A stretch of 13,681 nt of DNA from Promethearchaeota archaeon (GTDB lineage: Archaea > Asgardarchaeota > Lokiarchaeia > Sigyniarchaeales > SOKP01): NCBI GenBank assembly GCA_004524535.1, contig SDNY01000099.1, positions 1 to 13,681 of the forward strand, read 5' to 3'. Below are positions 2,579 to 11,450 of the stretch, piece by piece. The notes beneath the pieces are model-generated. The model did not search any database. It worked only from the letters and a program-made list of their open reading frames with translations, and was not told the DNA's origin. The first letter of the stretch is position 1. Each line of letters begins with the position of its first letter. The translations under genes were made by a program, and so were the position numbers.

Positions 2579-3023
2579 AAAATTTTCTTGTTTAAATTAA
2601 ATCAATAATACCTTTGTTTTTGAAATATTAATTTCCCAAATAAATAGTATGCACAAATTATAAATCTTTTATTCTCTCAAGATTTTTCAAGTGAAGAGAT
2701 ATTGATTTTTGTCTTTTGGATTCTTTTTTTTCATTTGTTCCCAATCTTGAAAATCTTTTTCATTCTCTTTTTTTTATTTATAATCTTTTTATTTCATTCT
2801 TATTTTTACTCTGATTTTTCCTTTCAGAATATTTCAGATGATTTTTAACTTCTGATTTTCCCCCAAGAAAATTATTTGAATTCTTTTTTTTATTTAACAA
2901 TAAATTTTAATTTTGATTTTTAATACTTCTAATTATAATTATGAATCTTAAGAAATATAATTAAAAAAAAAAACAAAAAAATAAGTTCGATGAAAATATG
3001 AGACTATTAGATATAATTGTATT

Positions 3024-3031
3024 AAGGAGGT
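3024..3031 (+). promoter_or_regulatory. Shine-Dalgarno ribosome-binding site of cdhC
   Basis: AAGGAGGT ends 10 nt before ATG 3042. Confidence 0.7.
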
Positions 3032-3041
3032 TGTTTGAAAG

Positions 3042-4534
3042 ATGAGTTTTAAGTTTTTTGGAGGAACTTCACCTGTTGATGTGGGACCTGTGTACGAAGG
3101 TGAACGAATCAGAGCAAAGCAAATGTACGTAGAGCTTGGAGGACCAAAAATTCAGACAGGACATTTCGAATTGGTAAGAGTTAAGCCTGATAAAGAAATT
3201 AAGGATGGACAAGTGAAAGTAATTGGTCTTGACTTAAAGGATATGGAATTAGGTTCAACCCATCCAATTGGCATTTTAGTTGAAGTCGCAGGACCTCAGT
3301 TGGAGGAAGACCTGGAAGCAGTGTTCGAAAGAAGAATTCACGAGTTCTGCAACTTTGTTAATGGTATCATGCATCTCAACCAAAGATATACAAACTGGAT
3401 GAGACTTAGTAAAACAGCTTACGAAAAGGGGTTTAATTCATTTGAAATATTAGGAAATGTGTTAATTCGACTTTTCAAAGCTGAACTACCAATTATTGAG
3501 AAGGCACAAGTAACTATTTATACAGATCCAAAAGAGATTGAGAAACCATATGAGATGGCGTTGGCTATATATGAGGCTAGGGATGAAAGAGCTCGAACTA
3601 TTCATGATGAGGATGTCGAAATGTATTACGGATGCGTATATAGTTTCTCAGATTGAGAGTCTAGCGCTATATGCCAGTCTTTCGCTCCGACTCATGCTTG
3701 TTGCATAACACCAGATAGAACCTCTCTCTGCGGCAGTATTAATTGGTTTGATGCAAGAGCTGCCGCTAAGGTGGACCCGAAAGGACCAATAATTATGTCA
3801 TTCCGACTAATAGGTTAATCTATGAGGTTCCACCAGGAGAATGCCTTGATGCTTTTGCTGGAGAATTCTCGGGAGTTAACGATATGATAAAAAAACGTTC
3901 TCTCGGGGAAATTGAGCGTATCTATCTTTACTCTGGTATGGAATTTCCACATACATCGTGTGGGTGTTTCGAAGCTATTGATTTTTTTATCCCAGAAACA
4001 GGAGTAGGACACGGTATAATTGACCGAAGTCATGATGGTGTGGCATTAAATGGACTACCATTCAGTGCGATGGCAAATCAGACGGGTGGAGGCAAACAAA
4101 TGCCTGGTTTTAATGGAATAAGTATCCAATACATTCTTTCACCGAAATTTCAACAATATGATGGTGGAATTGAGATGGTTGTATGGATGGGAAAAACTGT
4201 AAAGGACCGAATATATGAGTTACTCCCTGAAGATTTACGAGATAAAATTGCTACTGAAGAGGATGTCAATGATTTAAATGCTTTAATTCCATGGTTACAA
4301 GAAAAAGGCCATCCAATTGTAGAGACTGAGAAGTTTAAGGCTGCAATTGCCGAGCAAGAAGAAGAGGAAGAGGAATGGGAAGAAGGAGGAGCAATGATGC
4401 CTGTAGGGACCGTTGGAATGACGATTGCTGGCGTTGGCGGTGCTGGCGGATTTAAGATCATCTTAAAGAACTGTAAGGTCAAAGCGGAATCAATTATAAT
4501 AAAAAAAATCCAATCTAGAAGAAGCAAAAAATAA
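3042..4534 (+). CDS. cdhC: Acetyl-CoA decarbonylase/synthase (CODH/ACS) beta subunit; spliced model join(3042..3639,3670..3789,3819..4534), 477 aa
   Basis: Archaeal CdhC motifs: PVDVGPVYEGERIR, ELGGPK, ERRIHEFCNFVNGIMHLNQR, HDEDVEMYYGC, CQSFAPTHACCITPDRTSLCGSINWFDARAAAKVDPKGP (between the two track ORFs), PHTSCGCFE, GGGKQMPGF, and an acidic/Gly-rich tail. The exons total 598+120+716=1434 nt, an intact frame. Confidence 0.95.
3640..3669 (+). other. Candidate BHB-type pre-mRNA intron 1 in cdhC (30 nt)
   Basis: Central 4-bp helix GCGU(3634-37)/GCGC(3664-67). Three-nt bulges AU^A(3638-40) and UA^U(3668-70). Intron hairpin UAGuUUCUCA-gau-UGAGAGuCUA (3641-3663). Exon pairs U3633-A3671 and A3632-U3672. 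Removal gives TGC GTA TTA TGC = C-V-L-C and deletes the TGA at 3654. Confidence 0.88.
3790..3818 (+). other. Candidate BHB-type (slightly relaxed) pre-mRNA intron 2 in cdhC (29 nt)
   Basis: Central 4-bp helix GACC(3784-87)/GGUU(3813-16). Bulges AA^U(3788-90) and AA^U(3817-19). Intron hairpin AUUAuGUC-auucc-GACUAAU (3792-3811), closed by an A3791/A3812 mismatch. Exon pairs G3783-C3820 and A3782-U3821. Removal gives DPKGP-IYEVPPGECLD and repairs the frameshift. Confidence 0.85.
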
Positions 4535-4535
4535 A

Positions 4536-4590
4536 TTTTTTTATTTTACTTTTTTTTACTTTTATTATTTTACTTATTTTGAAATACTTT
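4536..4590 (+). terminator. T-tract region after cdhC; probable archaeal-type terminator between convergent genes
   Basis: Multiple T runs (up to 8) directly after TAA 4534. A-runs further on would serve the opposite strand. Confidence 0.45.
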
Positions 4591-4659
4591 TATAAAAAAT
4601 AGATATAAAAAAGATGCTTTAATTCAATAGCATAATTCATTTTCTTACGAAAAAAAGTT

Positions 4660-5390: not shown

Positions 5391-6500
5391 ATGGCAAAAA
5401 AACCATCAACTTCAAAATCAATACCTAAAAATAACCCAGTAGCTAAAAAGAAACCAGTAGCTAAAAAGAAACCAGTAGCTAAAAAGAAACCAGTAGCTAA
5501 AGAAAAAGCCGATACAAAAGTAGTAAAAAAAAGCCCTAATGAATTAGAGATATTAAAAAAATCTCCTTATCTTAAAGATTCACTAAAGAACATTAAGGAT
5601 TTAAATTTATCTGATTTGTTTGAAAGGAATCTTATTAAAGAAAAAGAATCTGATTTTGAGATCGTTTTATCTGGTCAATATGAAAAGGCTATTGAATTAA
5701 TTATGGAGGCTGATGCTTCTAATTTGTATCCAATATTAATTGGGCCACCTGGGATTGGTAAAACGACTTTATGTCGATATTACGCTCAAATTAGATCCCA
5801 TATTATCGGAAATAGCTCATTTGAGTGGATTACATTTGATGAGTCAACAAAACCCGCCCATTTAATTGGATCATTTAATCCCGCTATTACAATCCAAAAA
5901 GGTTTTTCATTTGATTCTTTTAATCCAGGACCCTTAATCCGAGCCATGTTAAGAGGAGGGGTATTCTTAGCTAACGAAGTAAATCGTGCAACAGAGTATA
6001 CACAGAATTCATTGTTAGAACCTTTAGAAGAAAAAACGGTTGCAATCCCACATATTGGGAGAATTAGAGCAACTTCAGGTTTCTTTTTCATTGGTTCTAT
6101 GAATCCTTCTGAATTGGTTGGGACACACCGATTAGGCGAGGCTCTTAAAGATAGATTTAATGTGTGGATTGAGCTTAATTATCCTGATAAAAAAACGGAA
6201 ATGAAAATAATTGAACATAATAATCCATATTACAAGATCGATGAAAGCTTGTTGGAAAAGATCTATCTTCTTATCAATCGAACACGTACTCATCATCAGG
6301 TTCAAATTCCCGCAAGTTTAAGGAGTGGAATAGCTATGGCTCGGCTAGTAGGGATTTCTCAATTGAAGAAAGAACAACCTAATCCAAATGTCATTTTGCG
6401 TGAAATTGCTAAGCATGTTTTAAATGGTTCAATTCAACCAAAACCAGGTGTAAAACCTGAAAGTATCATTAAAAATATAATAAGCCAAGTAGTTGGCTAG
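5391..6500 (+). CDS. MoxR-family AAA+ ATPase with a Lys-rich N-terminal tail
   Basis: Walker A GPPGIGKT, helix-2 insert region HLIG...FNPGPL, Walker B variant VFLANEVNR, QNSLLEPLEE, sensor I SMNP and Arg finger EALKDRF. It is adjacent to a VWA gene. Confidence 0.92.
   Translation: MAKKPSTSKSIPKNNPVAKKKPVAKKKPVAKKKPVAKEKADTKVVKKSPNELEILKKSPYLKDSLKNIKDLNLSDLFERNLIKEKESDFEIVLSGQYEKAIELIMEADASNLYPILIGPPGIGKTTLCRYYAQIRSHIIGNSSFEWITFDESTKPAHLIGSFNPAITIQKGFSFDSFNPGPLIRAMLRGGVFLANEVNRATEYTQNSLLEPLEEKTVAIPHIGRIRATSGFFFIGSMNPSELVGTHRLGEALKDRFNVWIELNYPDKKTEMKIIEHNNPYYKIDESLLEKIYLLINRTRTHHQVQIPASLRSGIAMARLVGISQLKKEQPNPNVILREIAKHVLNGSIQPKPGVKPESIIKNIISQVVG
5436..5501 (+). repeat. Perfect 18-bp coding tandem repeat CCAGTAGCTAAAAAGAAA x3.7 (PVAKKK)
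   Basis: Identical units start at 5436, 5454 and 5472, with a partial unit at 5490-5501. Confidence 0.95.
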
Positions 6501-6531
6501 AATTAGTTTAAAAGACTTTGTGATGTAAATC

Positions 6532-9102
6532 GTGATAATTTTCCCCCAAAATCCGATATGGTTTTCAATTAAGTTTATTAATAACATGAGAAAGCATGAA
6601 AAATGTGCCTATAAACCATCAATTCGGCAGGCCATTGCAATAAGCAAGTTGATTTTAGCCAGATATCTAAATCGTGGGATTTGCTTAAGTGATGATTTTG
6701 TTGAAATTGCTGTAATAACGAGCCCTTTAGAAAATCAATCGCTTGCTCGAAAGGTCGCAACAGAAATATTAAGTTATAATGAAGCTGCCAAAGTTAAAAT
6801 TCTCGATCCTATGAGTATTGATCCAAATCTCTTTAGTGAAGTTACAGGATCAGACCTAATTAGTGAATTTGATGAGGAAGAATTAAGTGAACTGGAAGAT
6901 GTCCTTGATGATTTTGAATTTTTAAGCAGTTTTTTTGATGAATTAATACAATCAGACATGGAAACAATTCTAGATTCATTAAAAAATAACTTTTTTGAGA
7001 AATATGGAGACATGTTATTTGAAGACCCATATAAAGCAGCTATCGAATTTTTATTAAAAAACTCATTTGAAAATTTCGATATTCTTAAAGATTTGAATGA
7101 TTTAATTGAAACTGCAAAAAAAATGCTTAAAGAAAAATTAAATCATTTGGACCCGGAAGATATTCAATATACTGAAAAACTTGATTTATTAGATGAGATA
7201 ATTGATGGGTCCGAAAGTTTTAGGGAGAAGCTCTCAGCTAATTTGGCAAAAAATGGTGATTTTGATAAATTTCTAAATGATTTAGAGGAAAAACTACGAG
7301 GAAACTTCTTTGAAGGATTAGGTGCTTTAAATTTTGGATTAAGCGCTGGATTATTAGATGATGAGAACCAACAAGCAGTTAAAGAGATGTTGAAAAGCAT
7401 TTTTACGCAGGTCGAAAAAAATATAAACGATTTACTTGAGGCTTCAAGGGTCATGGGGACCAAATTGGGATTGAATAAAGAGGAATTAGAACAGATAATA
7501 GAAAATAGCATGGATTATCCATTTGATGATACTTATAATGCTATAAAAAACCTTGATCAATATTTTGGAGAACAATTATGTGATGATTTCTTGAATAAAA
7601 TGGCTAATAGCATTGATGACTTAGAGATGGATGAGGATTTAATAGAAAGTTTAATATCTAATCCAACTAGAACACCATCATGGCGCCAACTTTTAAAAAA
7701 TCGTATCGATAATAAAGTTAAATCCATTTTAGAGAATAATGATTACCAAGAAACTATAAGCAGCGATTTAAAAAACTTTACTAATAAAATAATTTCTGAG
7801 AAGGGAAAGTGCTTTGATTTAGCTTGTAGATCTCAAATAAATGATTTAACTTCTGATCTAGTGAATACCTCAATTGAAAACTCTTGGAATCCTGACGATC
7901 TCACAAATTCAGTAACCCACTATAATGAACAAGGAATTCATCCAGATATTAATTCTATAAAAAATACGGGTAAAAGGCTCAATATGAGCAATGCTGAAAT
8001 AATGCGTTTAATCTCTTCAGATTATCAAGTGTTGGAAGAAATGATTGAGGAAGGCATGCAAGATTACAATGCCTATAAAAATATTTTAAACAACCTTAAT
8101 TTAAACTATCCAGAAGTGAATAATCTCGTTCAATTATCATTGAAGGGAAATGATCCATCCACCTATAATTTAGAAGCTTTAAGTGCACTATCTGAAAAAT
8201 ATTTATCAAATGTATTAAATTCAGCTAATTCTCTTGGATCTGATAAACTCAATGCTGTATTATCTTCATTAGGTGCAGGAAGTGGATTAGATCTTCTAGA
8301 ACAATGGTTTTATTCGAGACATAATCTTCCTCCACGTGTGAAAAATAAGCTAAAAGAGATTATTAAGCAGATAATGATTGATTTAGGTATTAGATCAGCT
8401 AATTCTTTAATAGGTTCAGCTAATTCTGGACCGTTGGTTGAAAATGTTGTGATCCCATATAATATTGGTGATGATTTTGATTTAATTGATTTAGAAGAGA
8501 CCGTAAGCAATCTCTTAGATGGGGGAAAAACCATCGAAATGATTGAAGAAGATGATTTTTTGGTCTCTAAAACAACTGAAGGCCTTCGATGCTTAGTAAT
8601 GGAGCTAGATATAAGCGGAAGCATGATCGGGGAAAAGTTAGCACAGATGGCTTTATGTACAACAATGTTAATCTATGCATTTAAACCTGAAGAACTTGCA
8701 CTTACCTTTTTTGAATCAAATACACATAAATTAAAAAATTTAGATGAAGAAATTGAGATTGAAAAAGTTGCTGATGAACTCCTTGATATTGAAGCTAGAG
8801 GCGGTACTTGTATTCATTCCGCATTAGAATGGGCAAATCTTCAATTCGATAAAAAAGCTAGGTCTAAATATAAGTTAAATATTTTATTTACGGATGCAGA
8901 TGTTTTTGATTTTTATGAGAGCAAGAGAGAATTGGAAAAAATGAAAGATGGCGATATCAGATTTGTCATGGTTGTACCTCAATTTCATTATTCTCCTGTC
9001 ATGGCAAAAAATATGGTAACTGAAGCGAATGGTGTATTATTAACATTAGATCAATGGAGAAATTTCCCAAAACTAATTTCTGATATTATCTCAAATCAAT
9101 AA
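6532..9102 (+). CDS. VWA-domain protein (MoxR partner) with a long acidic helical N-terminal region
   Basis: C-terminal MIDAS motif LDISGSM, GGT and ILFTD, preceded by the IDLEETV motif typical of MoxR-associated VWA proteins. It starts 31 bp after the ATPase. The GTG start is uncertain. Confidence 0.9.
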   Translation: MIIFPQNPIWFSIKFINNMRKHEKCAYKPSIRQAIAISKLILARYLNRGICLSDDFVEIAVITSPLENQSLARKVATEILSYNEAAKVKILDPMSIDPNLFSEVTGSDLISEFDEEELSELEDVLDDFEFLSSFFDELIQSDMETILDSLKNNFFEKYGDMLFEDPYKAAIEFLLKNSFENFDILKDLNDLIETAKKMLKEKLNHLDPEDIQYTEKLDLLDEIIDGSESFREKLSANLAKNGDFDKFLNDLEEKLRGNFFEGLGALNFGLSAGLLDDENQQAVKEMLKSIFTQVEKNINDLLEASRVMGTKLGLNKEELEQIIENSMDYPFDDTYNAIKNLDQYFGEQLCDDFLNKMANSIDDLEMDEDLIESLISNPTRTPSWRQLLKNRIDNKVKSILENNDYQETISSDLKNFTNKIISEKGKCFDLACRSQINDLTSDLVNTSIENSWNPDDLTNSVTHYNEQGIHPDINSIKNTGKRLNMSNAEIMRLISSDYQVLEEMIEEGMQDYNAYKNILNNLNLNYPEVNNLVQLSLKGNDPSTYNLEALSALSEKYLSNVLNSANSLGSDKLNAVLSSLGAGSGLDLLEQWFYSRHNLPPRVKNKLKEIIKQIMIDLGIRSANSLIGSANSGPLVENVVIPYNIGDDFDLIDLEETVSNLLDGGKTIEMIEEDDFLVSKTTEGLRCLVMELDISGSMIGEKLAQMALCTTMLIYAFKPEELALTFFESNTHKLKNLDEEIEIEKVADELLDIEARGGTCIHSALEWANLQFDKKARSKYKLNILFTDADVFDFYESKRELEKMKDGDIRFVMVVPQFHYSPVMAKNMVTEANGVLLTLDQWRNFPKLISDIISNQ

Positions 9103-9122
9103 CGATTGAAGTGTAAAATAGA

Positions 9123-11450
9123 TTGGAATTTAAGGAAAATATTAAAAATATAGAATTATTTAAACGTCGTGTAATAGGAGCCAGATTGAGTAGAGGCAGA
9201 AGTATTCCGTCAAAAAATATTATTGATTTTAGTGTCTCTAAATCCCCTTCTGTGAGAGTAATTGCTAATATTTTAGGCTCTGAAAATCGTAGTTATGTTA
9301 TCAACATTTTTCAGGATGAGAAAAATATCATTAATATCATTCATGATTGTCCAGATTTTCGGAAGGGAAATAGTTTCTGTAAGCATATTGTGAAGATTTT
9401 ATCCATATTAGAATATGAAATATGTGCTCATATCTGTAAAGATCTTCAAAATATTAAATTTTCATCTAATTTTAATTTAGTTAAGGAAAGTAAAATCGAT
9501 AGTTATATCTTAAAAGCGAATGAATTATTAAATGAAAAAAAAATAGAGGAAGCAATTGGATATTTAAATCAAGCGTATGAAAATTCAAAAGATCAAGTAT
9601 ATATAGAAAAAATAATTGAAATTTCATTGGAGAATGAAATTTATTACCACTTTCTAAATTATATAAAACTTAACGAGGATTTAATTAACTTTCATTCAAA
9701 ACACTTGCCAAAAGTAATAAAACTCGAAATCGGTAAGATTCAAGAATATGATTTTCAAAAACAAATTAATCTTGCTTTTAGCATACAAGATATTCTAATA
9801 AAATTACCAAAAAACAAAATAAAGGATATATTTAGCAATATCGATTTAAAAAGATTAAATTCATTTATCTTACGTTATATTCTAATATCTAAATTTAAAG
9901 ACCTCATTTATGTTGAAGATTTTTTTCAAAATGAGTTAAAGTTAAAAGATGATTTAGAGTCTTTCGCACAGAATTTTATTACAGAAGCTTTAAATGAGTC
10001 AATAATGAATATGGAAACAGAGGATATAATCAATTCTTATCAAGAGATCATTAATCGATATGATTTCAGTAACAAAAACCAATTATTAATGGAAATTGAG
10101 AGATATAGAAAAAAAATAAAGAACTTATATAAGGATGGATTAAAATTAAAACATGCCTTTCTAAGATCACTTGTTATTTCGAATTTTCAGAAAGATACAT
10201 TGAGAACCATGCCTTTTTCCTTTAGATATAGATGGCCTAATTTAGTATGGACAAGCCCTTATAAAAGTGAAAGTCAGCTCCATTATTTTATTTTAGAAAA
10301 ATGTGGATTTGAAAGACATCATTTGGAATATGTAAATAAGAAATTTTTCATAGAAAACTTTCCTATTTTTAGTGGTATATTTGGAGCCAAGAATATTTTT
10401 CCGAAGGAGGTTAAAGATTTTTGGAGCGTAAATGATCCTAAAATTGAAAATTCTATTTTTGATTCGCACCATCTTGAAGTAGATTTTGACATTATTCATA
10501 AATCTTTGAATGATTACATGTTAATCGAATGGGATTTGGTACAAGCTCCTATTTTAGGGAGTTATATTTATCAATTTGATCAAGGTTTTATTATTCCTGA
10601 TTTGACTCATCCATTAACCTATAATATACAACCATTTGATCTATATATTTGTCTTAAAAAACCCATTAATATCAAGCAGAATAACACCAAGATTATTAGA
10701 CCAATAAGAAAGATCAATGTTAAGACAGCTATAGAATTTGTACATAATGGAATTGAGTTTATTACTACTTATTTGCCATTTCAAGTAATAATTGAGTTGA
10801 AAAATAAAAAGATTGATGAAATTGACGCTTGGAAGCACATTAATCAGCAAATGGATCAATTATTTTCTCCTAAGAAGAATAAATTTAAACAATACATGAG
10901 TGATTTTATTCAAACTCAAATAAATAAAGATTTTAATGAATTTTATTTGAAGATAGTCGACAAGGAAAAAAATAGACAGAAAGTTTTGGATCTTATTGGT
11001 TTTAAGCATTATTTTGAGATATTTAACAAAAGAATAGCTTTACAAAAGTTTAAGATTGGAAATCTAAAAAGAAATTCACTTCAAGAGTTAAAGGTTGATT
11101 TAAAGAATTTTGTGGTTGAAGAAATAGTAAAAATAGTGAAACAAAAAAGATTTAATCAAATTAATATTAAAAAATTAAAGGAATTTCCAGCTTTCAAAAA
11201 TCTTTCGCTTAAAATAATTCAATTGCTAAAAGATGAATTAGAGGAATGTAAGATTTATAAAATTGAAGCATCTAAATACGATATAACTGAATTACTTGAA
11301 AATTATTACGGGAAGAAAATTGTCGAAGGGTCCGAAATAACAATTTTGAATGATGAAAAAATGTCTTTAGTTTCAACTGAAGATCTGAAAAAATTACTCT
11401 CAAACTTTTCATTTTTAAAAATTGACAATCCAGAAATAACACATAGATAA
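9123..11450 (+). CDS. 775-aa protein with an N-terminal SWIM-type zinc finger and a TPR-like helical hairpin
   Basis: GSENRSYVINI...HDCPDF...FCKHIVKIL is a SWIM pattern with His in place of the first Cys. KANELLNEKKIEEAIGYLNQAYE is TPR-like. The TTG start lies 20 bp after the VWA stop. Confidence 0.8.
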   Translation: MEFKENIKNIELFKRRVIGARLSRGRSIPSKNIIDFSVSKSPSVRVIANILGSENRSYVINIFQDEKNIINIIHDCPDFRKGNSFCKHIVKILSILEYEICAHICKDLQNIKFSSNFNLVKESKIDSYILKANELLNEKKIEEAIGYLNQAYENSKDQVYIEKIIEISLENEIYYHFLNYIKLNEDLINFHSKHLPKVIKLEIGKIQEYDFQKQINLAFSIQDILIKLPKNKIKDIFSNIDLKRLNSFILRYILISKFKDLIYVEDFFQNELKLKDDLESFAQNFITEALNESIMNMETEDIINSYQEIINRYDFSNKNQLLMEIERYRKKIKNLYKDGLKLKHAFLRSLVISNFQKDTLRTMPFSFRYRWPNLVWTSPYKSESQLHYFILEKCGFERHHLEYVNKKFFIENFPIFSGIFGAKNIFPKEVKDFWSVNDPKIENSIFDSHHLEVDFDIIHKSLNDYMLIEWDLVQAPILGSYIYQFDQGFIIPDLTHPLTYNIQPFDLYICLKKPINIKQNNTKIIRPIRKINVKTAIEFVHNGIEFITTYLPFQVIIELKNKKIDEIDAWKHINQQMDQLFSPKKNKFKQYMSDFIQTQINKDFNEFYLKIVDKEKNRQKVLDLIGFKHYFEIFNKRIALQKFKIGNLKRNSLQELKVDLKNFVVEEIVKIVKQKRFNQINIKKLKEFPAFKNLSLKIIQLLKDELEECKIYKIEASKYDITELLENYYGKKIVEGSEITILNDEKMSLVSTEDLKKLLSNFSFLKIDNPEITHR

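Follow-up and report, generated by a model that had tools for sequence, protein, structure and literature searches.

The cdhC Gene of the Window

The stretch analyzed here (the window) comprises 13,681 nucleotides of contig SDNY01000099.1 from the Promethearchaeota archaeon assembly GCA_004524535.1, and the element under study is a short insert, called intron 2, in its cdhC gene. The host genome of the window (G000) is 3.66 Mb in size with a G+C content of 30.4%, and it comprises 198 contigs and is 99% complete. Other genomes carry G-numbers in the same way; C-numbers denote contigs of a genome and L-numbers single loci, and L058, L111 and similar labels stand for the cdhC sequences of relatives. 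The cdhC gene was located at 3042-4534 on the + strand and was identified with Pfam as encoding the beta subunit of acetyl-CoA synthase (CdhC, E 4.6e-61; ACS_CODH_B_C, E 3e-37 on 3884-4534). Only a single copy of this essential gene of carbon fixation existed in G000. Plain translation broke the gene twice: an in-frame stretch holding a TGA codon followed ..YYGC, and a frameshift occurred after ..DPKGP. The gene was divided as follows.

3042..3639, + strand: exon 1, starting with ATG at 3042 and ending with ..YYGC-V and the first base of a Leu codon; unbroken in relatives
3640..3669, + strand: intron 1, 30 nt, in frame, with TGA at 3654-3656
3670..3789, + strand: exon 2, 120 nt, comprising bases 2-3 of the Leu codon, CQSFAPTHACCITPDRTSLCGSINWFDARAAAKVDPKGP and the first base of an Ile codon
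3790..3818, + strand: intron 2, 29 nt, frameshifting; 29 extra bases compared with the CdhC of a relative (tblastn)
3819..4534, + strand: exon 3, with the frame open from 3819 through the stop codon

The translation of exon 2 was identical or nearly identical to that of the relatives. These coordinates agree with an earlier sequence-only reading of the window, which had described intron 2 as a 29-nt, frameshifting intron 120 nt downstream of intron 1.

Both open reading frames (ORFs) that remain under plain translation, 3042-3656 and, from the ATG at 3884, 3884-4534, carry a Pfam domain, and each could in principle give a polypeptide of its own. However, the 40-codon middle exon, which is fully conserved and contains the cysteines of CQSFAPTHACC...C, would then be left untranslated. 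The frame of exon 3 was also open for 22 codons upstream of ATG 3884 and matched the relatives there. The chance that CdhC is made as separate polypeptides is close to negligible.

Proposed Structure of the Two Introns

The proposed structure of intron 2 follows the bulge-helix-bulge (BHB) arrangement, with a central helix H between two bulges, an outer helix h and an internal helix h'. Its elements were as follows.

3770..3783, + strand: 5' strand of the outer exon-exon helix h, with 3820-3834 as its partner
3784..3787, + strand: 5' strand of the central helix H, GACC, on the exon side; 4/4 pairs with 3813-3816
3788..3790, + strand: 5' bulge AAU, predicted cut 3789/3790
3791..3812, + strand: internal hairpin h', with an A/A mismatch, 4 bp, bulged U3796, 3 bp and the loop AUUCC
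3813..3816, + strand: 3' strand of the central helix H, GGUU, on the intron side
3817..3819, + strand: 3' bulge AAU, predicted cut 3818/3819

When the sequence was parsed by hand and by script, G3784-C3787 paired with G3813-U3816 (GACC:GGUU) at all four positions. Next to the bulges, h consisted of G3783-C3820 and A3782-U3821 and was extended to 11 pairs. In h', the mismatch was followed by A-U, U-A, U-A and A-U, the bulged U3796, then G-C, U-A and C-G, and finally the 5-nt loop. A BHB motif is cut after the second base of each bulge, and Marck and Grosjean reportedly used, in 2003, flanking helices h and h' of at least 2 bp beside the bulges as a criterion for it. Excision at the bulges (junction 3789/3819) gave DPKGP-I-YEVPPGE, as in 108 of 109 relatives' loci. 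Since AAU is repeated at both bulges, four adjacent pairs of cuts would yield an identical mRNA.

The sequence-only reading had noticed the AAU in both bulges and the A/A at the first intron-side pair, and both can be read directly from the sequence. It had further called the motif relaxed and similar to a bulge-helix-loop. The first part of this description stands, the first pair of h' being lost; the second does not, because the 3-nt bulges and the 4-bp H are canonical. The motif of intron 2 is a mildly relaxed hBHBh' structure, not a bulge-helix-loop.

Intron 1 displayed the same arrangement.

3634-3637:3664-3667, + strand: H helix, GCGU:GCGC, 4/4 pairs
3638-3640 (AUA) and 3668-3670 (UAU), + strand: the two bulges
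3641-3663, + strand: h' hairpin, with 9/10 positions of h' paired; h reads pair, pair, mismatch, pair

Its excision gave YYGC-VL-CQSF. The two introns shared 15 matched bases, and 403 of 500 shuffles were equal or better; there is no similarity between them, in agreement with the earlier view that intron 2 is unrelated in sequence to intron 1.

From these features and those described below, intron 2 (3790-3818) is most likely a BHB intron in the cdhC pre-mRNA that would be removed by EndA, the splicing endonuclease, and by RtcB. In the proposed mechanism, GACC at the end of the upstream exon would pair with GGUU at the 3' end of the intron. The pairing would put each splice site in an AAU bulge of 3 nt, the two bulges being on opposite strands and 4 bp apart, with the internal hairpin closing one side and the long exon-exon helix the other. 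A heterotetramer-type splicing endonuclease, composed of a catalytic alpha subunit and a His-less beta subunit, would cut both bulges, and RtcB would ligate 3789 to 3819 and thereby restore the reading frame. Intron 1 would be removed in the same way. For both, we infer from the sequences that cleavage and ligation take place in the cell.

The chance of such a match was estimated from a defined geometry, counted when H had 4/4 pairs, h two pairs and h' at least 3/4 pairs. Its background in G000 was 0.074% of the position-and-length combinations. With equivalent junctions included, the chance was ~0.3% for intron 2 (4 junctions) and ~0.07-0.15% for intron 1. A looser BHB pattern had ~250 instances in 1.6 kb. 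Because the loose pattern is so common, the significance comes solely from the coincidence of the motif with a junction that restores the frame. The scan of 3000-4600 with Rfam gave a single match at chance level (E 0.81).

Distribution of Inserts in cdhC among Relatives

With exon 1 as a query, cdhC was found in 93 of 100 family genomes, mostly with open frames of 464-496 aa, compared with 205 aa in G000. All 29 fetched loci of relatives read GCVLCQSF...DPKGP[LI][FY]E in one frame. When 80 further loci from metagenome-assembled genomes (MAGs) were added, 108 of 109 were contiguous over both intron sites, and the sole exception, L111, had its own intron at the intron 2 site. A MAFFT alignment of 82 distinct cdhC sequences contained seven inserts, all of 29 or 30 nt, at five places.

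Place 1: intron 1 of the window
Place 2: intron 2 of the window and the insert of L111
Place 3: the insert of L045
Place 4: the insert of L086
Place 5: the inserts of L061 and L085

A search with the CdhC of an intact relative against 134 family genomes found the gene in 117 of them, and it was interrupted in seven (G000, G097, G055, G105, G127, G103, and G106), the inserts of 29-30 nt occupying four or five places. Across the whole class, where the gene was present in 129 of 160 genomes, no additional interrupted cdhC appeared. Genome G106 (L119) carried a homologue of the L086 intron, which brought the cdhC inserts to eight in all. Among the family genomes, 117 of which had cdhC, intron 1 was unique to G000. 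At the junction that restores the peptide, H was paired at 4/4 positions in five of the eight inserts (both introns of the window, L111, L085, and L119) and at 3/4 positions in the other three (L061, L086, and L045); L119 and L045 were parsed by hand.

In the cdhC tree, each intron-bearing sequence had an intron-less sister, which was L058 in the case of the window (support 1.0). The smallest clade containing both the window and L111 held 42 of the 82 tips. The introns at this shared site showed 17 matches, and 221 of 500 shuffles were as good, which means no detectable likeness. Here, two explanations may account for the intron 2 site, and either would fit: introns arrived there on two occasions, or an old one disappeared repeatedly as its hairpin drifted.

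Mapped on the phylogeny in this way, as had been proposed, the introns were patchy. The idea of two independent gains in one gene fits the dissimilarity of introns 1 and 2 and the absence of both from the sister L058 and from the other congeners. A search for donors with blastn-short, using both introns with and without their flanks against the 3.66-Mb genome, returned only chance matches of 12-21 nt (E at least 0.1).

Selection on Pairing and on the Interrupted Genes

The exon-exon helix of intron 2 (3770-3783 with 3820-3834) was complete in just two sequences, the window and L111, where all 11 tested pairs form; the 80 intron-less sequences had 3-9 of these pairs. For the encoded amino acids, there is essentially a single choice of synonymous codons that makes the helix perfect. 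The helix thus shows selection, and for the same reason it does not discriminate between common descent and convergence. At the intron 1 site, the exon helix was not specific to the window, and 6/6 pairs were present in 28 of 82 sequences. Comparison of intron 2 with the insert of L111 showed that H was kept, that h' was wholly different yet paired, and that the exon helix had 11/11 pairs in both.

L061 and L085 shared a homologous intron, with 24 of 30 bases identical, a value reached by none of 500 shuffles. Read by hand, the two introns differed by two compensatory changes in h', and in H a base of an exon Gly codon and its partner in the intron had changed together. The pairing is under selection in these related introns.

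After removal of the inserts, no stop codon remained in any interrupted cdhC. The ratio of nonsynonymous to synonymous substitution rates (dN/dS) between L061 and L085 was 0.047 at a dS of 1.75, compared with 0.033-0.045 in intact pairs. Between the cdhC of the window and those of congeners, dN was 0.14 and dS was saturated.

Probable Introns in Other Genes of the Host and a Congener

The ORFs from 800 kb of the congener G017 (contig C6) were compared with G000, and 340 ORFs were matched at an identity of at least 55%. Five further inserts of 30-33 nt were found in three other genes of G000, which were identified with Pfam.

G000:C100:9866-12247 (L181), - strand: cdhA, alpha subunit of carbon monoxide dehydrogenase (CODH; Prismane and Fer4 domains); insert of 30 nt with a stop codon, YYMP-I-CDMCC, H 4/4, h' 10/10
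G000:C17:3-606 (L180), - strand: rpoA1, RNA polymerase subunit A' (Rpb1 domains); insert of 30 nt, HFGH-IELA, H 4/4
G000:C17:3-606 (L180), - strand: rpoA1; insert of 31 nt, DEDG-LPIP, H 3/4 (by hand)
G000:C103:13415-14386 (L182), - strand: transporter of the SBF family (bile acid:sodium symporter); insert of 33 nt, H 4/4
G000:C103:13415-14386 (L182), - strand: the same transporter gene; insert of 31 nt, H 4/4

Together with cdhC, G000 contained seven introns in four genes, and three of these genes had two each. The prediction that the host would contain further introns was thereby borne out. For each insert, 13-17 offsets were tried by script, so that an H of 4/4 is weak evidence by itself. 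The offset that yields the peptide of the relative was verified by hand for the insert of cdhA, the 30-nt insert of rpoA1 and the 31-nt insert of the transporter gene. One candidate in G000:C120, with gaps of 54-87 nt at 62% identity, was rejected as not intron-like. The rpoA1 gene of G000 ran off the end of its contig, and its remainder was not found with a 400-aa query.

The reverse comparison (261 ORFs of G000 with matches) revealed four inserts of 29-32 nt in three genes of G017 (loci L128, L129, and L139). All of these genes were intact in G000, which indicated that the congeners carry different sets.

G017:C6, ~396800: insert of 32 nt
G017:C6, ~188850: insert of 29 nt
G017:C6, ~189000: insert of 30 nt
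G017:C6, ~165000: insert of 30 nt

By extrapolation, these numbers suggest that a genome contains tens of introns of this kind. Of the four interrupted genes of G000, three hold two introns each and three (cdhA, cdhC, and rpoA1) are probably highly expressed, which hints that intron gain is clustered or linked to expression.

These data also bear on the idea that cdhC is a dead gene. Under plain translation, the TGA in intron 1 and the frameshift at intron 2 have the look of a pseudogene inactivated by two small hairpin insertions. However, no other lesion was found in ~466 codons, and all conserved motifs were kept. G000 has only one cdhC. A like insert is present in cdhA, which is needed as well, and rpoA1, which is not dispensable, has two. 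Moreover, the intron-sharing genes L061 and L085 are under the strong purifying selection reported above, and synonymous sites are tuned to the exon helix. Inactivation of cdhC is therefore considered very unlikely, and the predicted BHB introns explain both interruptions better.

Probable rpoA1 Introns across the Family

An rpoA1 match was found in 127 of 134 family genomes, many of them with stops or splits. Twenty regions were fetched, and inserts were confirmed in 16 of the 127 genomes, including G000 (the other 15 being among loci L160-L176). Nine inserts were 30 nt and two were 31 nt long; the rest measured 40, 50, 65, 65, 85, and 85 nt. Two places were used, DEDG/LPIP and HFGH/IELA, and the intron at HFGH/IELA occurred in at least five genera.

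Eight sequences with the HFGH/IELA intron, from G000 and seven other genomes, were aligned and scored on the BHB structure. Paired cells made up 85.2%, compared with 68.6 +/- 2.3 in shuffles (0 of 500 reached the observed value), and 9 of 16 pairs had changes on both sides. The H helix was 100% paired, whereas controls with a slid position gave 34-53%. One pair of H, in which an intron base faces the third position of a Gly codon, varied as AU in four sequences, GC in two, GU in one and UG in one.

This covariation is relevant to translational bypass, in which the ribosome would hop over the 29-30-nt hairpin and leave the RNA uncut. Known bypass elements are those of phage T4 gene 60 and the 'byps' of yeast mitochondria, which are similar in size to the inserts. 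The inserts resemble them as short hairpins with stop codons inside a coding sequence, and no RNA cleavage was observed in this analysis. However, neither intron of the window has a match between take-off and landing codons in register. The AAU repeat of intron 2 (3788-3790 and 3817-3819) does not lie in register, and AUA and AUC would need different tRNAs; at intron 1, no hop produces the conserved VL. A conserved, covarying pairing that links the exon end to the insert's 3' end and leaves bulges of 3 nt separated by 4 bp is the definition of a BHB and not a feature of bypass. We consider bypass highly improbable, and excision as a BHB intron remains the favored explanation.

Both introns of the window appear by these features to be members of a set of stereotyped mini-introns of Loki-type archaea, mostly of 29-33 nt. 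Their usual layout is 1 nt, a stem of ~9 bp with a 5-nt loop, 4 nt, and 2 nt. On balance, we lean toward the view that Loki-type Asgard archaea routinely splice mRNAs with the tRNA-splicing machinery and that tens of BHB mini-introns, ~30 nt long, interrupt the protein genes of each genome. It is somewhat more probable than the opposite that there would often be two per gene, and that essential and highly expressed genes would be among those affected, such as the ones for CODH alpha, the acetyl-CoA synthase beta subunit and RNA polymerase A'. With a similar degree of reserve, gain, loss or movement of the introns would seem to be so rapid that few of them are common to congeners.

The longer rpoA1 inserts were all located at HFGH/IELA or within 4 nt of it: 40 nt in L171 (G016), 65 nt in L174 (G046), 65 nt in L173 (G116), 50 nt in L176 (G013), 85 nt in L175 (G067), and 85 nt in L172 (G115). 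These inserts may be BHB introns of a larger or nested kind. The rpoA1 matches of G126 and G128 contained a stop that was rejected as an intron, no insert of at least 10 nt being present; this stop probably lies upstream of the rpoA1 start codon.

Splicing Machinery of the Host

Two EndA paralogues, 201 aa each, were encoded in G000. The paralogue on C100 was closest to the catalytic alpha subunit of Aeropyrum pernix (3p1z_B, E 7.6e-37) and kept Tyr, His and Lys, which we take to be the catalytic residues of EndA. Its stretch ..PLGISKPRLEYFHKP.. aligned without gaps to ..PLDVEKPRGADFEGP.. of A. pernix and is presumably the crenarchaeal specific loop. In the paralogue on C84, Ser was found in place of the catalytic His. 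RtcB was intact in G000. Judged by these sequences, the EndA of the host has the (alpha-beta)2 layout, with a putative catalytic alpha and a His-less beta subunit. A broad-specificity EndA had been predicted in the sequence-only reading, and the subunit check in the genome supported it. According to the accessible part of one study, Asgard archaea have an (alpha-beta)2 EndA with an L1 loop, and relaxed motifs are removed only by (alpha-beta)2 and epsilon2 enzymes (Kaneta, 2018; PMC5829648).

The number of tRNA genes in G000 was 12 with aragorn and 15 with the Rfam model above its cut-off, and six of the hits were 101-105 nt long. Many tRNA genes of this genome may be hidden by introns.

Evidence from DNA, RNA and Folding

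In run X1, a contig of 352 nt covered 3401-3752, including intron 1, with 0 differences to the window. The same run had depth in bin 3792-3841, where no listed piece spanned intron 2. The insert is real DNA, because intron 1 was present in an independently assembled contig, as are the inserts in MAGs of many studies. Two runs labelled metatranscriptomic contained only relatives 85-95% alike, which lacked the inserts. These insert-free sequences were rejected as spliced RNA, since an identity of 85-95% indicates other species.

Several observations weigh against splicing of a BHB intron. Among the listed sequencing runs that contain 3042-4534, none was on record as RNA. In the energy model, the best BHB-compatible fold of intron 2 had -17.2 kcal/mol, compared with a minimum free energy of -18.7 kcal/mol (+1.5, ~8% of the ensemble); for intron 1 the values were -14.3 and -18.8 kcal/mol (+4.5, ~0.08% of the ensemble). 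Fold z-scores of the region were unremarkable (-1.6 to 0.0). The first pair of h' in intron 2, A3791/A3812, is mismatched, the insert of L045 can be accommodated only by a relaxed form that includes a 2x2 internal loop, and several related introns have a weak h beside the bulges, which was only 45.8% paired in the rpoA1 set. When the whole genome was scanned for BHB geometry combined with joining of open frames, there were thousands of matches and no excess over controls with shifted junctions. The noise in such structure-only scans arises from neighboring genes and terminator hairpins, and the lack of an excess means that this class of introns is invisible without homology. Splicing would also need to outrun coupled translation.

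Two observations leave some room for other routes, either removal of the insert at the RNA level by an agent different from EndA and RtcB, or an insert-free form of the DNA in some members of the population. The energy model gives the BHB as a minority fold, and contigs lacking the 29 or 30 nt were present in runs X20 and X21. However, the contigs of X20 and X21 were 85-95% like the window, so that they belong to other, intron-less species, and the geometry fits an EndA substrate. We know of no other archaeal system for the exact removal of 30-nt inserts. Such alternatives are hardly to be expected, and removal by EndA and RtcB is preferred.

Comparison with Known Systems

Introns of the BHB type in cbf5 are said to have been described by Watanabe in 2002 and by Yoshinari in 2006. 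In the accessible text of a later paper, splicing of the BHB intron in the cbf5 pre-mRNA of Crenarchaeota was reported in four species (Yokobori, 2009; PMC2738675). As far as these sources go, the two systems share a tRNA-type intron within a gene that encodes a protein, a host with a hetero-oligomeric EndA, and patchy gain and loss among relatives. The present introns differ from cbf5 in their host, an Asgard archaeon (Promethearchaeota), in the genes concerned (cdhC, cdhA, rpoA1, and a transporter gene), in their stereotyped length of ~30 nt, and in their number, with several in one gene and tens estimated for each genome. In addition, splicing is reported for cbf5, whereas for the introns described here it is predicted from the comparison of genes.

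The enzyme of Haloferax volcanii is of the alpha'2 type, other than that of the Asgard host. A BHB intron in the 5' untranslated region (UTR) of the HVO_1309 mRNA of this species was confirmed in vitro, and the accessible portion of that paper names only cbf5 as a reported case besides its own (Schwarz, 2020; PMC7714728). Within that portion, HVO_1309 resembles the present case in that an mRNA is the substrate of the splicing endonuclease. It differs in that its intron lies in a UTR and was proven in vitro; those of cdhC lie in coding sequence and are predicted by gene comparison.

For non-canonical and multiple tRNA introns of Asgard archaea, the part of a preprint at hand describes a pair of EndA paralogues, present in 44 of 60 genomes, recurrent gains at BHB-capable sites, and donor sequences that were not found; the classes rich in introns were Jordiarchaeia and Atabeyarchaeia, not those of the Loki type (bioRxiv 10.64898/2026.10.13.758758). 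The same presumed machinery, repeated gains and a lack of donors also characterize the inserts described here. Unlike these inserts in protein genes, the preprint concerns tRNA genes only, and the word 'mRNA' is absent from its available text.

In the splicing of HAC1/XBP1 mRNA, an intron flanked by stem-loops is removed without a spliceosome, the frame changes, and an RtcB-type ligase acts in animals. From what is generally known of that system, the common features are a short intron in coding sequence, a change of frame and sealing of the RtcB type. Its nuclease is IRE1 and it is regulated by stress, whereas a tRNA endonuclease is proposed here.

A literature search found no description of BHB introns in protein-coding genes of Asgard archaea. 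Intron 2 would add to the BHB introns of pre-mRNAs and belong to a larger, apparently undescribed population in Loki-type archaea. The accessible parts of the sources cited above present BHB introns of archaeal mRNAs as almost unique, with cbf5 of Crenarchaeota as the sole case in coding sequence; here, two are predicted in one gene of central metabolism and others in the genes for RNA polymerase and CODH. If they are spliced, such genes are misannotated by gene callers, which report fragments or pseudogenes, and key enzymes go missing when metabolism is reconstructed from Asgard MAGs. It would also mean that the closest archaeal relatives of eukaryotes hold a prokaryotic population of coding-sequence introns, and that in this nearest lineage introns of protein genes thrive with a protein enzyme as the agent of their removal. 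Intron gain and the coupling of transcription and translation would then become directly testable questions.

Neighboring Genes

The remainder of the window contained the following features. The spacer upstream of cdhC was extremely A+T-rich with long T runs, and the three ORFs at 5391-11450 on the + strand were tightly packed.

1-2112: open frame of 703 aa running off the 5' end, without a Pfam match
2579-3041: spacer of 460 nt upstream of cdhC
9123-11450, + strand: ORF of 775 aa without a Pfam match
6532-9102, + strand: protein of 856 aa with a C-terminal vWA domain
5391-6500, + strand: MoxR-type AAA_5 ATPase, tightly packed with the next ORF

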